From a virus (lineage: Duplodnaviria; Heunggongvirae; Uroviricota; Caudoviricetes), in IMG/VR virus record IMGVR_UViG_2639762987_000002: a stretch of DNA of 64,000 nucleotides; one strand, 5' to 3'. A program made the position numbers and the translations under genes. Below, in pieces: positions 5,954-15,647 of the stretch; positions within the stretch are counted from its first letter, which is position 1; each line of letters begins with the position of its first letter. The notes under the pieces were generated by a model. That model saw only the letters and a list, made by a program, of their open reading frames with translations. It was not told the origin of the DNA and did not search any database.

Positions 5954-6046
5954 TGGTAGAAAAAAATATTTATATCGGTAAAAATAAGTAGGTACTTACT
6001 TAATGGTGGGCAAGGATAGCCCACCAAATCAAGGAGCATATTCAAC

Positions 6047-9000
6047 ATGTGGTACAGGGAAGGTACTATCACATTTACACAGGGCAGCAATACTCTGGTT
6101 GGGGCAGGTACAGCCTGGAACGTAACAGCTAATGGTGTGTTGCCGGGGATGATCGTCATTGGCCCCGACAATAAGCTGTATGAGATCAAGCGCGTAACCA
6201 GTGATACGAACATTGTTCTCTCAGAACCTTATACCGGCGAAACTCAGTCTGAAGTTCCGTGCCGAATCATTACGACCTATGAAGGCGACTTAACACAGTT
6301 TAGCGCGCGCTTTACAGCACTAATGTCGCGTATGTCGGCTGATTCCAAGTCCATGCGCAGTTGGTTGACTGCTCTGGATGAGGTGACAATCGAGCGTGAA
6401 GACGGTACAGAAGTGACCGTTAAGCCGCTAATGCAGATCGTCAACGAGCACAACGAAAACGTTGAGTGGTATAAAAATAACACTGACGCGATTGATGCTG
6501 CTGGCGACAAAGCTCGTGAGGCGGCGGCCAGTGCTGCCGCAGCAGCAAAAAGCGCCAATGCCGCTGGAGAAAAAGCCTCTCAAGCGTCTCAAAGTGCATC
6601 CGCTGCGGCATCCTCACAAAGTGCCGCAAGTGCGAGTGCAACTGCTGCGAAAAAATCTGAAACGAATGCTGCAGCGTCACAAAAATCTGCAGCCACTTCT
6701 GCATCCACCGCGACCACGAAGGCGTCAGAAGCTGCCACCTCAGCCCGGGATGCGGCGGCCTCAAAAGAGGCAGCAAAATCATCAGAAACGAGCGCAGCCT
6801 CGAGCGCCAGTAATGCCGCTTCCTCGGCAACGGCGGCTGGAAATTCCGCGAAGGCGGCAAAAACGTCCGAGACGAACGCCAGGTCTTCTGAAACGGCAGC
6901 GGGACAGAGCGCCTCGGCTGCGGCAGGCTCAAAAACAGCGGCTGCGTCGTCTGCCAGTGCCGCGTCAACAAGTGCCGGGCAGGCCTCAGCCAGTGCCACC
7001 GCCGCCGGAAAATCGGCAGAAAGTGCCGCATCGTCTGCTTCAACGGCCACAACGAAGGCTGGCGAAGCCACTGAACAGGCCAGCGCAGCAGCGAGGTCTG
7101 CTTCCGCAGCGAAGACATCCGAAACGAACGCGAAAGCGTCGGAAACCCGTGCAGAATCCTCAAAAACGGCAGCCGCATCGTCCGCCAGTTCGGCAGCGTC
7201 ATCGGCATCATCTGCGTCTGCTTCAAAAGATGAGGCGACCAGACAGGCGTCAGCAGCGAAGGGCAGCGCCACGACGGCATCCACGAAAGCAACAGAGGCG
7301 GCAGGCAGTGCGACGGCTGCATCTCAGAGCAAAACTGCTGCCGAATCTGCTGCGACTCGTGCAGAAGCTGCCGCTGATCGTGCTGAAGAGATTGCCGGTG
7401 CAGTTGCGATGGAAGACGCAAGCCTTACAACTAAAGGTGTTGTGAAACTTAGCAGTGCTGTCGATAGCACCAGTGAATCGCTGGCTGCAACGCCAAAGGC
7501 AGTTAAAACTGTTAAAGATAGTTCAGTTCAAAAAACTGGCGACACAATGGGAGGGCAGTTAAAAATCGGCACGATAAATGCTCTTCGAATATTCAACCAA
7601 GCCTTTGGCCTTATTTTTAGGCGTTCCGAAGATTATATTCATCTTATCCCGACTAATGAAGGGGAGGGAGAAAATGGAGACATCGGTTCATTAAGACCAT
7701 TCTCTATAAACTTAAGATCAGGGTTGGTGTCCATCGGTAATGGACTAAAAGTTGGTGGTAGTGTTACTGGTAATTTGACCGGAAACGCAGATACTGCGAC
7801 CAAGATCAAGACAGCACGTAAGATTGGGGGCGTGGCATTTGATGGATCGGCAGATATCAACTTGCCTGGAGTCAACGCTACCGGTAATCAAAACACTACA
7901 GGTAATGCTGCGACCGCCACGAAACTTCAGGCAGCCAGAACGATTAACGGTGTGTCATTTGATGGTAGTGCAAATATCACATTGACCCCTTCAAATATTG
8001 GGGCGTTGGCATTAACTGGAGGGACTCTTTCAGGTGGTTTAACTGCTGCTGGTGAGATTATTTCAAAGTCAGCAAATGGTCTGCGTATTGCCTATGGCAA
8101 CTATGGATTCTTTATCCGAAATGATGGCTCAAATACATATTTTATGTTGACAGATTCGGGTAACAGTCTTGGTACGTACAATAGCTTAAGGCCGTTTATA
8201 ATTAGTAACTCTACTGGCAATGTTACAATTGCAACTAAATTAAACGCGAGTAGTGGTATCACTGGATCTTTATCGGGTAATGCAAGCACAGCAACCAAAT
8301 TGCAGACAGCAAGAACCATCGGTGGTGTTAGCTTCGATGGCACTGCGAATATTAATTTGCCTGGTGTTAATGCTGCCGGTAATCAGAACACTACCGGTAA
8401 CGCGGCCACAGCGACCAAGTTGCAAACAGCTAGAACTATTAACGGGGTGTCGTTTAACGGCTCTGCGAATATTTCAATACCAACAATTACGTCCAGAGGG
8501 CGCGTTACTGCGCTCACCGGTACAACACAAGGTGCTGCGACTGGATTGCAGATGTACGAGGCATATAACAATGGCTACCCTTCGTCTTACGGGAATGTGC
8601 TTCATCTTAAGGGCGCAACGGCCGTTGGTGAAGGTGAGTTGTTCATAGGTTGGAGCGGTACAAGTGGTGCTCATGCACCTGTACATGTACGTTCGCGACG
8701 AGATACGGATACATCCAGTTGGTCTGAATGGGCGCAAGTTTATACGTCCAAAGACTCAATTCCAGGTGTCAATGCCACCGGTAATCAGAACACTACTGGC
8801 AACGCAGCCTCTGCAACGAAGTTGCAGACAGCCAGAACAATTGGAGGTGTGTCGTTTAATGGCACCGCCAATATTAACTTGCCGGGTGTTAATATAGCGG
8901 GTAATCAGAATACGACTGGTAACGCAGCTTCAGCCACGAAGTTACAAACGGCTCGTACTATCGGTGGTGTTAGTTTTAACGGCACAGCCAATATTAACTT

Positions 9001-11183: not shown

Positions 11184-11876
11184 ATGAAGACTCCGAGAGG
11201 CATTCGTAATAATAACCCCGGTAATCTTGATAAAGGATCACCGTGGCAAGGTCTGGTTGCGAATCCAGGCGAACCGCGCTTTTGCACGTTTAAAGACCCT
11301 GTTTGGGGAATTCGTGCGCTGGCGGTGACTCTAATTACCTACCACGACAAACGTCGCGCAAAAGACGGCTCAAGTATCGATACCATTCGTGAAGTTATTG
11401 AACGTTGGGCACCGCCGAATGAAAACAATACTGACGCCTACATTAATGAGGTGTCTAAAGCCGTTGGTGTAACCGCAGACATGATCATCGATCTGCATGA
11501 TTACGACATCCTTCGACCTTTGGTTGAGGCAATCATTCGCCACGAGAATGGCCGAGGCCCGCTAAAAACGCTGAACACCTGGTATGCGGCAGAAGTAATT
11601 GAGGAAGGTCTGCGTCGAGCTGGCGTTGTTAAGCCGGTGAAAACCGTGAAGGCTGTTCCTGTAACTAAAGAAACCGCAGGCGCAACTGTTACAGCAGGTA
11701 TTGGTCTGGCGCAGCTGGCCGATGTTATGCCGCAGGTTTCCGCTGCTATGGATAAAGCACAAGGTCATATCTCTAGCGGGGATACAGTACGCATCATCTT
11801 CGGTATTGCCACTATTGTTGTGGCAGGATTCATTGCCTGGTCGCAGGTAAGAAAACACCAGAAAGGGATGGTCTAA
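11184..11876 (+). CDS. Lysis-cassette protein, putative cell-wall hydrolase with C-terminal membrane anchor
   Basis: RBS CAGGAG before ATG 11184; motif IRNNNPGNL; C-terminal hydrophobic helix; position before spanin pair. Function inferred from context only. Confidence 0.35.
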   Translation: MKTPRGIRNNNPGNLDKGSPWQGLVANPGEPRFCTFKDPVWGIRALAVTLITYHDKRRAKDGSSIDTIREVIERWAPPNENNTDAYINEVSKAVGVTADMIIDLHDYDILRPLVEAIIRHENGRGPLKTLNTWYAAEVIEEGLRRAGVVKPVKTVKAVPVTKETAGATVTAGIGLAQLADVMPQVSAAMDKAQGHISSGDTVRIIFGIATIVVAGFIAWSQVRKHQKGMV

Positions 11877-11877
11877 T

Positions 11878-12129
11878 ATGCTAGGCAGCCTGATGACAAA
11901 GCTAAAAGTTGCTTTGATTACGCTGGCTGCCGTTCTTTTCGTTCTTGTCGGCGCTTACACGATGGGCGGGAATGCGGCGCGACGAGCAATGGAAGAGAAG
12001 GCAAAACAGGAAGACAGAAAACGACTTCAAAGCACAGTGGATGTCAAAAATGAAACGGTTAATGAAGTGCGGCAAAAAGATGCCTCTGGTGTTCATCGCG
12101 AGCTGTTTGATAAATGGGTGCGTGATTAA
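11878..12129 (+). CDS. Putative i-spanin (Rz-like)
   Basis: 83 aa; N-terminal TM helix then charged helical region; an overlapping lipoprotein gene lies in another frame. Confidence 0.5.
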   Translation: MLGSLMTKLKVALITLAAVLFVLVGAYTMGGNAARRAMEEKAKQEDRKRLQSTVDVKNETVNEVRQKDASGVHRELFDKWVRD

Positions 12130-12286
12130 GACGCAGGCTCCAGGCGTGCTATTCTGCGATGCTGCAAATCCTATTTATGTGAGTAGAGAGGATTTTATGA
12201 CTGAGGAAACGGAGCGACAGTTGCTTATCCACAATACGATAGGTGAAAGGCTGTGTGAGTGGGGGGCACCTGAACTGAGTCGATGA
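12050..12286 (+). CDS. Putative o-spanin (Rz1-like lipoprotein), overlapping the i-spanin gene
   Basis: Alternate frame of ORF 11945-12286; signal peptide MKRLMKCGKKMPLVFIAS with lipobox IASC; start codon uncertain (12041 or 12050). Confidence 0.45.
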   Translation: MKRLMKCGKKMPLVFIASCLINGCVIKTQAPGVLFCDAANPIYVSREDFMTEETERQLLIHNTIGERLCEWGAPELSR

Positions 12287-12502
12287 TTGATGAGTGGTCT
12301 CAGTTTACCTTTTATCCTAAAGATGGCATCTTCACTCATATACACGCCTGTTCACTCAAGCTCATGTTGAATCATTTAGTAATTTGATGTAGATTTATTA
12401 GGCATCCACGTAAGTGGGCACATACAGGCTACGCATCCTCGTAGCCTTCAACCCCGAGAGGGGTGCCGCAATGACACTTGTGTTAACGGCTAAGGTGGAC
12501 AC

Positions 12503-12886
12503 ATGCTGAACGAGAAACGTTCTATACAAACTATTCGCGATTGCACGAGTATTATCGAGACTCATGTGCTGAATCAGCACAAGCTTGAAGTACGTAAGCT
12601 CAATAATGACGCTATTGAACCGGAAGACTCACGCTTCATCGTTACCTTCAAAGACGATGTTGAGCGCGCTGGTGCAAGCGTGAAGCCATTAGCTGAAGCA
12701 ATTTACCTGAATGGTCGTGTTCGTTTTGTAGTCAAGCCAGCTAAACAGTACCCTGAGCTGTCTCGTTTTATCGAGGCTTTTTCGGAGGTTATTGAACATT
12801 CTATTCGCCGCTTCTTACGCAATCATGGTAGCATTGTCAGCACGGTTAAGGCTGATGATTCTGCTACAAAATGGCTCCTACACTAG
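12503..12886 (+). CDS. Hypothetical protein
   Basis: 127 aa; overlaps next ORF by 16 nt, suggesting a two-gene operon. Confidence 0.45.
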   Translation: MLNEKRSIQTIRDCTSIIETHVLNQHKLEVRKLNNDAIEPEDSRFIVTFKDDVERAGASVKPLAEAIYLNGRVRFVVKPAKQYPELSRFIEAFSEVIEHSIRRFLRNHGSIVSTVKADDSATKWLLH

Positions 12887-13623
12887 ATAGCGCATATTCA
12901 AAAGATCTAAGCGAGTTTCCTCATAAAGGGGAGACTCGTGTTGTTCGTTTTGGCTTTCTTATCAATGAAGCCTCCCTCTATAAAATCTCAGAAATTGAAA
13001 TCATTGAACCAGAAGATGACATTTGCCTGTATGTCTCTATGGAACTTGTAGGTGCGCGCGACCAAGGCGACCTGAGCGAATTCATCTTAGATCGAGCGGA
13101 TGAAGATGCCCCTGAAGAAGAGATTATCAAAGAGGTGCTCCAGTCCGGGCTTCTGGACGAAAACAAAAATACGATCGCTGGTAGGATAGCTCTGCGTGAA
13201 TATAGTTTTGTTGAAGACGGTAATGAGATCGAATGTTACCAGGTAGCCGGTGTCGAAACTGTCAGAGAGCGTCGTCAGCGAGGATTGTGTCACCGTACCT
13301 ATCTCTTTCTTCTTCATTGGTATGAGCATTTAGTCTGCGACGATACACAAACCATTCCTGGTGCTAAGATCTGGGCAGGGCCTCTCATGCGAACCGGCGA
13401 TGTGCGTATATACAATGCCAAAACAGAAACGTTCGAGGATGTGTTAGGTGAGTACGGGATGGGGAAAGAAACCGGATTTTTGCCGTGGAACAGAGGATTG
13501 TTGCTTGATGCAGAGTTAAGCTCTTGGCTCCCAAACAAAGTGCAAGTTAACGTTCAGAAATTTATCGTACTTATCATCTCCCGCAAAACAAGAACTCCAG
13601 TAGGTTTATACCTAAAAGATTAA
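12871..13623 (+). CDS. Hypothetical protein
   Basis: 250 aa, acidic N-terminal half; followed by a terminator. Confidence 0.5.
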   Translation: MAPTLDSAYSKDLSEFPHKGETRVVRFGFLINEASLYKISEIEIIEPEDDICLYVSMELVGARDQGDLSEFILDRADEDAPEEEIIKEVLQSGLLDENKNTIAGRIALREYSFVEDGNEIECYQVAGVETVRERRQRGLCHRTYLFLLHWYEHLVCDDTQTIPGAKIWAGPLMRTGDVRIYNAKTETFEDVLGEYGMGKETGFLPWNRGLLLDAELSSWLPNKVQVNVQKFIVLIISRKTRTPVGLYLKD

Positions 13624-13628
13624 AAATC

Positions 13629-13651
13629 AGGCGACTTTGGTCGCCTTTTTT
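13629..13651 (+). terminator. Rho-independent terminator
   Basis: AGGCGAC-TTTG-GTCGCCT hairpin followed by TTTTT. Confidence 0.8.
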
Positions 13652-13751
13652 GTTAACAGCCATTGATTCTCGCCTAAAAATTCTAAGGCAGCACCTACCA
13701 TTTAACCTTTACACCACAGCCGTAGGCATTTAGGCTATATCACATATAAGA

Positions 13752-13764
13752 AAACAAGTTGTTT
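13752..13764. promoter_or_regulatory. Palindrome AAACAAgTTGTTT upstream of parA (operator-like)
   Basis: 13-bp palindrome AAACAA-N-TTGTTT; similar sites at 16682, 28267, 40681, 54203. Confidence 0.45.
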
Positions 13765-13799
13765 CAGACGATAATTATATACGCAAAGGGAACTCTCCA

Positions 13800-14468
13800 A
13801 TGACCAAGATCTTTGTGGTTGGCGGCACAAAGGGCGGGCCTGGCAAATCCACCGTTGCCCAGCAAATTGCCGTTTGCCTGAAAGTCAAAAAGAAGAAGAA
13901 GGTTTATATCACTGATATAGATATTCAGCGCACGACAACAAGCTGGTGTGAAGACCGTCGACAGAACGAAGACCTTGAGCTGATTCCTTTTGCATACGTT
14001 CAGGATGACATCATTAAGCACCTAAAATCGCTTCAGGGTAGAGCTGAGTTTGTAGTGGTAGATGCTGGTGGCTTCGACTCCGAAATTCAGCGACAAGCGA
14101 TGCTGATGGCTGACGTTATCATTATCCCGCTGCGTCCTAAGCGTCGTGATTTGAAATCTTTACGTGACATCGATCCTATTATCGACAATGTTCGCAATGT
14201 AAACGATAAAGTGAAGGTCCGCGCGGTCATGAACCAGTGCCCGGCTTTGCCATCACAAGTGTCTCGCATTCTGGCGGCTAAAGAGATTGTTGAGACGTTT
14301 GGCATCGAGTCTGCGCCAGTCAATCTATATAACCGCAACGTCTATGATGATGCGGAAGAGTCTGGTCGTTCTATCTTTGAAATGACCGGTAGCGAGCGCG
14401 ACAAAAAGGCGGAAGCCGAGTTTGAAGAATTTGTAGATTATCTGTTGAGTCTGGAGGAAGAAGAATAA
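13800..14468 (+). CDS. parA: ParA-family partition ATPase
   Basis: Deviant Walker A GGTKGGPGKST at N-terminus; 222 aa; followed by a small RHH-like gene. Confidence 0.75.
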   Translation: MTKIFVVGGTKGGPGKSTVAQQIAVCLKVKKKKKVYITDIDIQRTTTSWCEDRRQNEDLELIPFAYVQDDIIKHLKSLQGRAEFVVVDAGGFDSEIQRQAMLMADVIIIPLRPKRRDLKSLRDIDPIIDNVRNVNDKVKVRAVMNQCPALPSQVSRILAAKEIVETFGIESAPVNLYNRNVYDDAEESGRSIFEMTGSERDKKAEAEFEEFVDYLLSLEEEE

Positions 14469-14827
14469 TGTCCATGAAAATGGGTGACCTAGCAAAGCGC
14501 AAAGAGCCTGATGCACCGGCTAAGAACACAACTCCTTTGCGCCAACCAGTCAGACCACAGGGACGCCCGACTCGTGGCAAAGAGAAAATTAAAAGCCGCA
14601 CAATGTCACTGGAGGACGAATACTTCGAACTGCTGGAGATGATGAAGTTCATCCCTCGCTTCGAGAAGTTCACTCGTTCTGACGTGATTCGAGCAGCCAT
14701 TTTCCATCTGGCAGAGAAGTCACCGCAGGAAATCGAGGACATCGTGAAATTGAATGAGGCGATCACCGCTGCCGATGTCACGATGCGTACCGATGAAATT
14801 AAACGAGAGTTGATGAAGAAAGGTTAA
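14468..14827 (+). CDS. Putative centromere-binding protein (ParG/RHH-like)
   Basis: 119 aa; basic disordered N-terminus, C-terminal strand-helix-helix-like region; start overlaps parA stop. Confidence 0.4.
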   Translation: MSMKMGDLAKRKEPDAPAKNTTPLRQPVRPQGRPTRGKEKIKSRTMSLEDEYFELLEMMKFIPRFEKFTRSDVIRAAIFHLAEKSPQEIEDIVKLNEAITAADVTMRTDEIKRELMKKG

Positions 14828-14879: not shown

Positions 14880-15647
14880 TTATGCCGCGCTAACACTATG
14901 TTCAGTCCTAACCACCCCAACCTTCACAAAAGGGCTACCGTAGCTTGGTGGCTTCTTGATTAATTTGCCTACATACAGTTTTCTAATATGCTCATCGGCT
15001 ATTCTGCCAACAAATTCATAACGTTTTGTGTCGGGGCCAAGAGCTATATCCCTTGTAAAGTACTGCTGAGAACCGGCTTTGACCCAGCATTCAATCTGAT
15101 AAACTTCCATTATCAGCCCACCATATGTAGCGTAGGCATATTTGAGATTCTCGTCTCTTGGAACCTTTGCCCATACGCCACGCGTAGCTTCATATAATGC
15201 CAGAGCGGACATTCCTGACTTGTAGGTGCTGTTTAGCAGGAAGGCAAGACCGGCGTGCTCAGGAGCAATTTCAGTTTCCTCTTGCAGCACTAAGTGATGG
15301 TAGGCGTCCAGTGATATTCTGCCCATCATGGAACCACTTCCTCGTACCTTATTCGTAAGCTCTCCGACCCCCATAAGGTCGATGCATGTCGCCTCAACAA
15401 GTTTGGCTGTGGTTTCATCCATACCATGACGAAGTATATCTATGCCTAATTTTTTATTAGCCAAAAGTTCTTTGATCCGCATGGATTTGGGAGAGTCATC
15501 GGGATACTTGATGTGATCGAGACAACGAGTCGATTTGCCTTTTCCTATGTAAAACGGTCTTTTCATCTTGTCTTCTGTATCATAGAGACAGTAAACATAG
15601 TATTTAGCCTTATCCAATGATCTCGCGTATACCGATAAATCGTCCAT
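14880..15647 (-). CDS. GIY-YIG family nuclease
   Basis: 255 aa on minus strand; N-terminal YYVYCLYD...PFYIGKGKSTR matches the GIY-YIG motif; C-terminal domain unassigned. Confidence 0.6.
   Translation of the reverse strand: MDDLSVYARSLDKAKYYVYCLYDTEDKMKRPFYIGKGKSTRCLDHIKYPDDSPKSMRIKELLANKKLGIDILRHGMDETTAKLVEATCIDLMGVGELTNKVRGSGSMMGRISLDAYHHLVLQEETEIAPEHAGLAFLLNSTYKSGMSALALYEATRGVWAKVPRDENLKYAYATYGGLIMEVYQIECWVKAGSQQYFTRDIALGPDTKRYEFVGRIADEHIRKLYVGKLIKKPPSYGSPFVKVGVVRTEHSVSAA

Follow-up and report, generated by a model that had tools for sequence, protein, structure and literature searches.

A mobile two-gene cassette of SSU5-like phage-plasmids encodes a predicted GNAT-fold protein and its constant small partner behind a structured leader

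We examined a pair of overlapping genes, here called A and B, carried on a 64,000-nucleotide (nt) stretch of viral DNA (IMG/VR record IMGVR_UViG_2639762987_000002; class Caudoviricetes), the whole of which we refer to as the window. The pair, A at 12503-12886 and B at 12871-13623 on the plus strand, is a self-contained, horizontally mobile cassette of the moron type, made up of promoter, leader, A, B and terminator. We tentatively read it as a toxin-antitoxin-like conflict/addiction module or a defence-type module, with B as a GNAT-fold effector and A as its controller, and hold this reading, the best supported of those considered, to be plausible rather than probable. It is based on the constant association of A with B, the autonomy and mobility of the cassette, its equivalence with the TacA/TacT (TacAT) pair in the slot that it occupies, and the several layers of expression that would limit the synthesis of B.

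Both genes start with ATG, and they encode proteins of 127 (A) and 250 (B) amino acids (aa); the overlap spans 12871-12886 (16 nt), with B in the -1 frame relative to A. They are real genes, as each has dozens of homologues, a ratio of nonsynonymous to synonymous substitution rates (dN/dS) of 0.04-0.25 and a structure model that is confident over most of its length. An earlier, sequence-only reading of the window had described two open reading frames (ORFs) of these lengths and this overlap, which the coordinates in the ORF list bear out, and had placed them between lysis and partition modules. That placement is correct: a lysis cassette (a holin-like gene, an endolysin and an Rz-like spanin with an embedded o-spanin frame) lies upstream, and a ParA-type ATPase (13800-14468) downstream. 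Its description of the pair as being of unknown function also stands, since neither protein belongs to a Pfam, NCBIfam or PADLOC family and both fall in PHROGs of unknown function; the Pfam, PHROG and NCBIfam searches revealed no structural or housekeeping phage protein homologous to either. None of the libraries searched carries an annotation for the A-B family.

Many non-mobilizable Escherichia coli and Shigella plasmids, mostly of ~105-120 kb (for example pERB3f3), carry the region at 100% identity, and it is collinear with Salmonella phage SSU5, from which we take the window to be an SSU5-like phage-plasmid. Compared with SSU5, the proteins that flank the pair are 91-94% identical, and A and B 37% and 33%; compared with L017, a locus of an E. 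coli lineage, the flanks are 98-100% identical, and A and B 77% and 80%. Sliding identity along the DNA localises this difference. Relative to SSU5, identity is mostly 72-98% in the flanks and 13-70% (mostly below 60%) between ~12220 and 13690, while relative to L017 it is 97-100% in the flanks and 37-80% between ~12015 and 13540. The exchangeable cassette, at ~12220-13690 on the plus strand, is thereby bounded by recombination breakpoints, one where the spanin genes end and one just past the terminator. Within it, dN/dS is 0.04-0.25 for A and 0.05-0.07 for B, and in the L017 comparison dS is ~1 or saturated in A and B, as against 0.04-0.06 in the flanking holin, endolysin and parA genes. The contrast in dS, taken together with the low dN/dS, indicates that old alleles have been exchanged by recombination and that A and B are under purifying selection. 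Fast local diversification as the source of the low identity of A and B was rejected on the same dN/dS values and on a high dS only inside the cassette.

The pair is also found well outside this backbone. On the Dickeya chromosome it forms an isolated island between housekeeping genes, and elsewhere it sits inside a tail operon of lambda-like type, flanked by the tape-measure gene and gpM/gpL-type genes, or inside a P2-like baseplate operon. Other copies adjoin an endolysin and a Q-like antiterminator, UmuC and an O-antigen acetylase, or a colicin-type DNase, and one stands beside an ABC transporter in a 254-kb contig. A moron, in the sense of Hendrix and colleagues, is said to be an autonomous promoter-gene-terminator insertion in a phage genome. 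A-B has a predicted promoter and a terminator, is inserted between genes that are adjacent in relatives, and varies among relatives. The sequence-only reading was therefore right to call the pair an autonomous two-gene unit: it has a conserved promoter and a terminator of its own, is exchanged as a block between near-identical backbones, and stands alone in the Dickeya chromosome, in Rep3 plasmids and in unrelated prophage tail and baseplate operons.

To see what else occupies the position between the lysis genes and parA, we surveyed the 79 IMG/VR loci containing both Rz and ParA. The slot holds TacA and a GNAT toxin in 42 of these loci and A-B in 30, and is otherwise filled by a ~400-aa protein of no known family (three loci), filled by a very acidic 183-aa protein, as in pHCM2 (two loci), or empty, with ~310 nt (two loci). 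TacA/GNAT and A-B were not found together in the slot at any of the 79 loci, and no TacAT copy was found elsewhere in the 64-kb window. A-B and TacAT are alternative cargo of one hotspot beside the partition genes. The slot of an Enterobacter phage-plasmid (L042), for example, carries TacA1 (PF08681, E 2e-26) and a 174-aa GNAT protein (Acetyltransf_1) on the opposite strand. In Cyrano, an SSU5-like phage-plasmid of E. coli LF82, a 'KacT acetyltransferase-type toxin' and its antitoxin lie between the Rz1 spanin and ParA, and expression of this pair in lysogens is 35-60 times the prophage background (PMC9928086). This sharing of a slot is our main argument that A-B may do a job comparable to that of TacAT, and it is an argument by position only.

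The remaining occupants of the slot are of some interest in their own right. The 183-aa protein of pHCM2 from Salmonella Typhi (L043:1719-2270, minus strand) has no family match, an isoelectric point (pI) of 4.3 and a net charge of about -20, and is reminiscent of DNA-mimic anti-restriction proteins. The ~400-aa proteins (L090:2100-3311, L092:2120-3313, L095:884-2095 (-)) share a C-terminal R-x4-H motif (RSKLVHG); an assignment to HEPN was rejected, as there was no significant Pfam or PADLOC match.

In every B homologue examined, A is the universal small basic partner of B. An A homologue lies directly upstream of B in 24 of 24 IMG/VR loci and in both genome loci, on the Dickeya fangzhongdai chromosome, and in all 28 metagenome loci with upstream sequence (B identity 29-40%; A at E 1e-19 to 1e-42), where the two genes either share 16-20 nt or lie 0-19 nt apart. 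In metagenomic Rep3 plasmids of 4-6 kb, the protein upstream of B has 108 aa and matches the A profile with an hhalign probability of 97% (E 6.5e-11). In SSU5 (L002, NC_018843), too, an A homologue precedes B. B starts there at MAPSL, at position 6001 of the locus (gene 6001-6750), and so shares 16 nt with SSU5_031, the overlap present in every other allele; the start annotated for SSU5_032 (locus position 6049) is probably too far into the gene. A programmed -1 frameshift fusing A and B at A-AAA-T (12866-12872) was considered and rejected, because no fused homologue of ~375 aa occurs among more than 100 family members and because 0-19 nt separate the genes in the versions on Rep3 plasmids and in some metagenome loci. 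Small plasmids with a distant A-B pair also carry a second overlapping gene pair, of 250 aa and then 122 aa, with a 47-nt overlap and no Pfam match (L029:4779-5853, minus strand, in a metagenomic Rep3 plasmid).

Protein B is probably a very divergent GNAT-fold acyltransferase and is predicted to be an active enzyme, a view that draws on its fold, on weak sequence matches and on conserved residues in the acyl-CoA/catalytic segment. In the AlphaFold2 model, which is confident at residues 20-155 (predicted local distance difference test score ~90) and poor at 159-169 and 189-231, B has the mixed alpha/beta core of the GNAT fold at about residues 20-181, followed by a conserved C-terminal extension of ~70 aa. 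Its fold matches include Hat1, NatD, AAC(2') and Mom, with Mom ranked 41st and weaker than the other three. Sequence identity to AAC(2') and to Hat1, NatD and Rim-type N-acetyltransferases is 6-13%. At the beta4-alpha3 loop, where the GNAT motif A is expected to read Q/R-x-x-G-x-G/A, B has R-Q-R-G138-L-C; the glycine is nearly invariant across the family, with G, A, S, C or M at the last position. In an alignment with the family profile, YRRQGIG of AAC(2') falls in register with this stretch, but with an E of only ~1, and one of 31 family members has an Acetyltransf_1 match (E 0.007). No significant match was found between B and a curated GNAT sequence model, and the link to GNAT models is indirect, by way of P0098, a large metagenomic protein whose residues 171-258 match the B profile (E 2e-8) and whose residues 162-257 are called Acetyltransf_1 by Pfam. 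Sequence-level support for B as a GNAT protein thus appears weak but consistent.

The pattern of conservation in B points the same way. Among 31 diverse members, P3, Q124, Y144, D157, Q160, W168 and W206 are invariant and K11, L13, R105, G164 and Y181 nearly so, and most of these residues fall in the beta4-alpha3-beta5-alpha4-beta6 segment, which in GNAT proteins holds acyl-CoA and the catalytic residues, an assignment made from what is established about the fold. The N-terminus carries a conserved motif, MAP.L...Y.KDL, and the protein is strongly acidic (pI 4.75; family median ~5). B belongs to PHROG 3307 (unknown function); it has no family match in Pfam or NCBIfam, nor any match in PADLOC-DB v2, which comprises models of known and candidate defence systems. 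The family is a small one, with only 46 relatives of B at E <= 1e-3, most of them of 230-260 aa, in an exhaustive profile search of 1.84 billion representatives. Word-index searches with A and B returned 'hypothetical proteins' only, mostly from Enterobacterales.

Protein A is basic (pI 8.8; family median 9) and belongs to PHROG 2594, also of unknown function. It has no family match in Pfam or NCBIfam, no sequence match in the PDB and only a chance-level match in PADLOC (E 0.013 over 22 residues). Its conserved motifs are RSIQTIRD.T, VKPL.E and KQYPE, and it contains a single cysteine. Its similarity to B is in fold only: a relationship as sequence paralogues was rejected at an hhalign probability of 0.3%, A is without the C-terminal half of the GNAT fold, and at the place of the glycine-containing pyrophosphate loop it has an invariant K-Q-Y-P-E. 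The C-terminal KW(L/H)LH of A is nearly invariant, which we read as a by-product of the overlap, because the conserved N-terminus of B is encoded there in the other frame and MAP.L is kept even where the genes do not overlap.

Upstream of A, the end of the o-spanin reading frame at 12286 is followed by 216 nt without a same-strand ORF, overlapped by two short minus-strand ORFs (56 and 60 aa) that look spurious. The sequence-only reading had called this interval an ORF-free leader, which is accurate as to same-strand ORFs, but the interval is not empty, as it contains a conserved sigma-70-type promoter and a conserved, structured 5' untranslated region. The predicted promoter (12367-12395, plus strand) consists of a -35 element TTGAAT at 12367-12372, a 17-nt spacer and a -10 element TAGATT at 12390-12395, and from it we infer the transcription start of the cassette, near 12402. 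It matches the consensus at 8 of 12 positions, under the scanner threshold of 9, and is hence absent from the scanner listing. It is conserved in all enterobacterial versions of the cassette, and its -35 TTG and -10 GTA.ATT do not vary among 11 divergent loci, with SSU5, Pantoea and the Dickeya chromosome among them.

The predicted transcript carries four hairpins in the ~100 nt ahead of A, all on the plus strand, which we call P0 to P3. P0 (CCAC-GTAA-GTGG, 12406-12417) lies at the 5' end; its sequence differs between lineages and is always palindromic. P1 (12426-12447) is an inverted repeat, AGGCTACG / CGTAGCCT, with the loop CATCCT. The loop and 3' arm (GCATnCTCGTAGCC) are invariant, and the 5' arm takes five different forms among 21 unique leaders, pairing with the invariant 3' arm in 19 of them. 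P2 (ACCCC-GAGA-GGGGT, 12451-12464) shows compensatory changes between lineages, with at least six different complementary stems in the same 21 leaders (among them CCCC/GGGG, CCCT/AGGG, TCTCCC/GGGAGA, CTCC/GGAG and TCCCCA/TGGGGG). P3 (12465-12490) combines an invariant outer stem, GCCG/CGGC, with a variable inner stem, and its 3' end abuts the Shine-Dalgarno (SD) sequence of A; it occurs as 12 distinct segments, all of them predicted stem-loops closed by the outer GCCG/CGGC. The translation initiation region of A that follows, TAAGGTGGAcACATG (12491-12505; SD and start codon), is made up of invariant columns. In L037-L039 (Dickeya fangzhongdai chromosome, ~7480-7620) and in L023, the part comprising P3 and the SD is tandemly duplicated: the first copy has a degenerate SD (CGGCTTAGTTGA), an extra hairpin lies between the copies, and the outer stem of P3 reads CTGG/CAGC in the duplicated copy.

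An alternative view of P0, as an allele-specific operator for A/B, is not supported, given the reshuffling of leaders and alleles in two loci. L040 joins a leader of the window's type, including P0, to A and B of the SSU5 type (28-32% identity), and L041 joins an L017-type leader to A and B of the SSU5 type. The P0 sequence thus does not follow the A/B allele, which favours a 5' RNA hairpin over an allele-specific operator. The leader as a whole (12403-12510) folds at -39.2 kcal/mol (z = -2.69), which only 2 of 200 shuffles bettered. Within it, the invariant segment of P1 has its complement in GGCUAAGGUGGAnACAUGC, likewise invariant, which takes in the SD and AUG of A (duplex -14 kcal/mol), and RNAalifold proposes part of this pairing. 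This suggests a switch in which the start site of A would be free when P1 is formed and masked when the 5' arm of P1 is unavailable. The window also contains a direct repeat, TAGGCATCCACGTA / TACGCATCCTCGTA at 12399-12412 and 12430-12443, which gives leaders of this type two copies of GCATCC, the complement of sequence around the start of A; of these, the first is paired with the SD and AUG in the minimum-energy fold (unpaired probability 0.02-0.23).

The leader motif stands upstream of A-B in 14 of 17 IMG/VR matches, and one further locus ends just past the motif. The other two matches are without the rest of the leader, and we rejected the idea that the motif is a general element of other genes. 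More distant versions have different leaders, again with a CCAC/GUGG hairpin (an anti-SD paired with an SD mimic), and the motif is absent from the Rep3-plasmid versions, though A is conserved there. No Rfam family matched 11800-14000 at E <= 1 apart from PhrS, and there was no match to the P1/N15-type C4 antisense RNA (RF01695). The PhrS match (13471-13655, over the end of B and the terminator) scored 17.1 bits against a gathering threshold of 37 (E 0.2), and we take it to be chance. The leader is thus apparently an unrecorded, compact cis-regulatory RNA, with a regulatory role predicted from its covariation and pairing.

Two further features bear on the relative amounts of A and B. B is without an SD of its own and its start codon lies within the 3' end of A. 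Moreover, a terminator scan reports an internal terminator-like hairpin on the plus strand (12911-12939, 12 pairs, with a U-rich tract at 12940-12955), which sits in the 5' end of B and begins 25 nt past the stop codon of A. This hairpin is kept in 11 distinct alleles, with 90% of cells paired compared with 41-54% in slid controls, and has compensatory changes in 4 of its 12 pairs. Its covariation score is 0.268 against 0.136 in shuffles (none of 500 reach it), a significance that is overstated, as the alleles are related. The changes F16W and E21D/A in protein B co-vary so as to keep the hairpin paired, and two of three SSU5-type alleles have a different GC-rich hairpin near the start of B. 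The hairpin is therefore a candidate attenuator, which would give more A than B. At the far end of the cassette, an intrinsic terminator was found at 13629-13652 (plus strand), AGGCGACtttgGTCGCCT followed by TTTTTT. Its hairpin (13629-13646; 7 bp, 5 of them G-C, and a loop of 4) and T-run after B confirm the strong terminator that the sequence-only reading had named, and the hairpin is terminator-like on the minus strand too.

These elements can be assembled into a model, in which enzyme activity, binding of A to B, toxicity, regulation by the RNA elements and any phenotype are all predicted. Its basis is what the sequence and structure analysis shows, namely the gene pair, the modelled fold of B, the constant linkage of A with B, the mobile nature of the cassette, its equivalence with TacAT in the slot and the RNA structures. 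B would have a potentially harmful activity that is held low and matched to A. The RNA leader could mask the ribosome-binding site and start codon of A, B would be translated only through coupling to A, and the hairpin just past the stop codon of A would end part of the transcripts ahead of B. The outcome of the three layers would be a limited synthesis of B, with at least as much A as B. The cassette may in this way stabilise the plasmid-prophage or abort competing infections, as TacA/TacT in the same slot is thought to do.

A number of observations weigh against reading A-B as a conflict or defence module. The sharing of a slot could simply mean that the site tolerates any cargo, as the 183-aa acidic and ~400-aa proteins occupy it as well. 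Neither protein is related in sequence to its TacAT counterpart (hhalign probability 0.1% both for B against the canonical GNAT toxin of the slot and for the A profile against TacA of L042), and Pfam finds no ribbon-helix-helix or helix-turn-helix DNA-binding domain in A. B is ~75 aa longer than GNAT toxins, and its C-terminal third is poorly modelled. PADLOC contains no known defence family for A-B, and a literature search found no paper on the A and B proteins, nor any that mentions their accessions. The charges are also reversed, with pI values of 4.75 for B and 8.8 for A compared with 8.98 for TacT and 5.17 for TacA. This reversal makes a tRNA-acetylating mechanism unlikely; a basic target, or A acting as a substrate mimic, is more plausible. 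A narrower version of our proposal, in which A-B is an undescribed two-component conflict family with an acidic GNAT effector, a basic non-tRNA target, a basic partner, a start-masking leader and moron-type spread in Enterobacterales and beyond, is one that we put forward as less likely than not.

Another way to view the pair is as a harmless two-subunit acyltransferase in the style of tandem-GNAT enzymes, with a catalytic B and a non-catalytic, GNAT-like A, carried as a moron for lysogenic conversion or counter-defence. It would benefit its carrier by acylating a basic target, for example a protein of the host or of an invading phage, a polyamine or an aminoglycoside-like compound. However, the two proteins have no sequence relation (the hhalign probability of 0.3% given above), A is missing both the pyrophosphate-loop glycine and the C-terminal half of the fold, and a harmless enzyme explains less well why B should be restricted in layers and why the slot is used in a mutually exclusive manner with a real toxin-antitoxin pair, so that we consider this somewhat unlikely. 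The polarity of the module could also be the reverse, as in type VII toxin-antitoxin systems, with A harmful and neutralised by B through acylation. The charge pattern, opposite to that of canonical GNAT pairs, would suit such an arrangement, as would a lower amount of B than A, because an enzyme antidote works sub-stoichiometrically. Yet a toxin that is encoded first and made in excess would be risky without a separate promoter for the antidote, of which the promoter scan showed none, and we know of no GNAT antitoxin of this type; a reversed polarity is thus quite improbable.

Two other known arrangements share parts of the layout. In one resembling com/mom of phage Mu, A would be an RNA-binding translational gate acting on the hairpins and B a modifier of nucleic acid, for instance in restriction evasion. 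We regard this as improbable, given that Mom is only the 41st among the fold matches, that the single cysteine of A leaves no room for a Com-type zinc finger, that a very acidic B would be odd for a DNA-binding enzyme, and that the leader motif is missing from Rep3-plasmid versions despite a conserved A. The other is a role specific to phage-plasmids, in lysis-lysogeny or maintenance, either as an antirepressor operon like P1 immI or as a partition helper. Such a role would fit the place of the cassette, with lysis genes on one side and parA on the other, its structured leader RNA before a small ORF that overlaps a larger one, and the circulation of several allelic types, as in heteroimmune regions. 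It is nonetheless highly improbable, since the cassette is also found in the Dickeya chromosome, in Rep3 plasmids of 4-6 kb and in unrelated prophage tail operons, some SSU5-like elements have no cassette or an empty slot, and no RNA of the C4 type turned up in Rfam.

Among clinical E. coli, Klebsiella, Salmonella and Enterobacter, carriage of SSU5-like phage-plasmids is common. The cassette itself is present in 78 of 5,426 complete E. coli genomes, plasmid-borne every time, and in 129 PLSDB plasmids (71 from Escherichia, 54 from Klebsiella and a few from others). Beyond parA, the window contains two genes that are relevant to its neighbourhood. Directly after parA lies a 119-aa gene (14468-14827, plus strand; PHROG 5111, unknown function) without a Pfam family and with a weak, sub-threshold NCBIfam match to the ribbon-helix-helix-type family aCcr1 (E 2e-4). 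The annotation of Cyrano names its counterpart a 'RelE/ParE putative toxin', but a ParG-like centromere-binding protein is at least as likely. Further on, at 14880-15647 (minus strand), is the gene for a 255-aa GIY-YIG protein (Pfam LEM-3_GIY-YIG, E 5.5e-7) that also fits PD-T4-3, a candidate defence model of PADLOC (E 1.3e-23). Some close relatives (L005, L007, L009-L011 and L020) have it too, and other genes take its place in pERB3f3, pG749_2 and others, so that cargo varies at a second site as well, immediately past the partition genes.

Should A-B prove to be a module for addiction or defence, it would add to the catalogue of such systems one that is GNAT-based with a new partner and a non-tRNA target, and would account for the mutual exclusivity of A-B and TacAT beside the partition genes. 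It would also offer a handle on the stability of SSU5-like elements and on their exclusion of competitors; to our knowledge, the basis of the persistence of these phage-plasmids in their hosts is poorly understood. The RNA elements are of interest in themselves. The leader combines clear covariation with a simple predicted switch logic, and the covarying hairpin within the coding sequence of B places protein and RNA constraints on the same codons.

Compared with known systems, A-B most resembles the type II toxin-antitoxin pairs of GNAT toxin and ribbon-helix-helix antitoxin in its layout. As in TacAT, KacAT, AtaRT and ItaRT, a small gene comes first and a GNAT-fold gene that overlaps or abuts it comes second in one operon, and like these pairs A-B is carried on plasmids, prophages and chromosomes and uses the same slot in related phage-plasmids. 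Unlike in TacAT, A is not a DUF1778/ribbon-helix-helix protein and there is no sequence relation on either side; B has 250 aa rather than ~175 aa and is extended by a further conserved region at its C-terminus; the small protein is the basic one and the GNAT-fold protein the acidic one, the cassette lies in the slot in the other direction, and it has a dedicated structured leader RNA. The non-ribbon-helix-helix partner, the absence of a relation of B to GNAT models or TacT, its additional 75 aa and the reversed charges place A-B outside the TacAT/KacAT/AtaRT family, and the likeness is one of layout, mobility, niche and, as predicted, restrained enzyme expression. As regards com-mom of Mu, neither the four-cysteine zinc finger of Com nor Mom as the closest relative of B was found, A being without zinc-finger cysteines, Mom a weaker fold match than Hat1, NatD or AAC(2'), and B highly acidic. 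Hat1, NatD, the Rim-type enzymes and AAC(2') in turn differ from B in lacking an obligate small partner that, like A, is encoded by a gene of its own. Like phage morons, A-B is present, absent or replaced between otherwise collinear genomes and is inserted between late genes of several unrelated phage types; unlike plain morons, a term for genomic behaviour and not for function, it is a fixed two-gene unit that also resides on small plasmids and chromosomes. If our reading is true, A-B would be of a known kind, a GNAT-based toxin-antitoxin or defence system, with a new partner, a different class of target and a riboregulatory leader.

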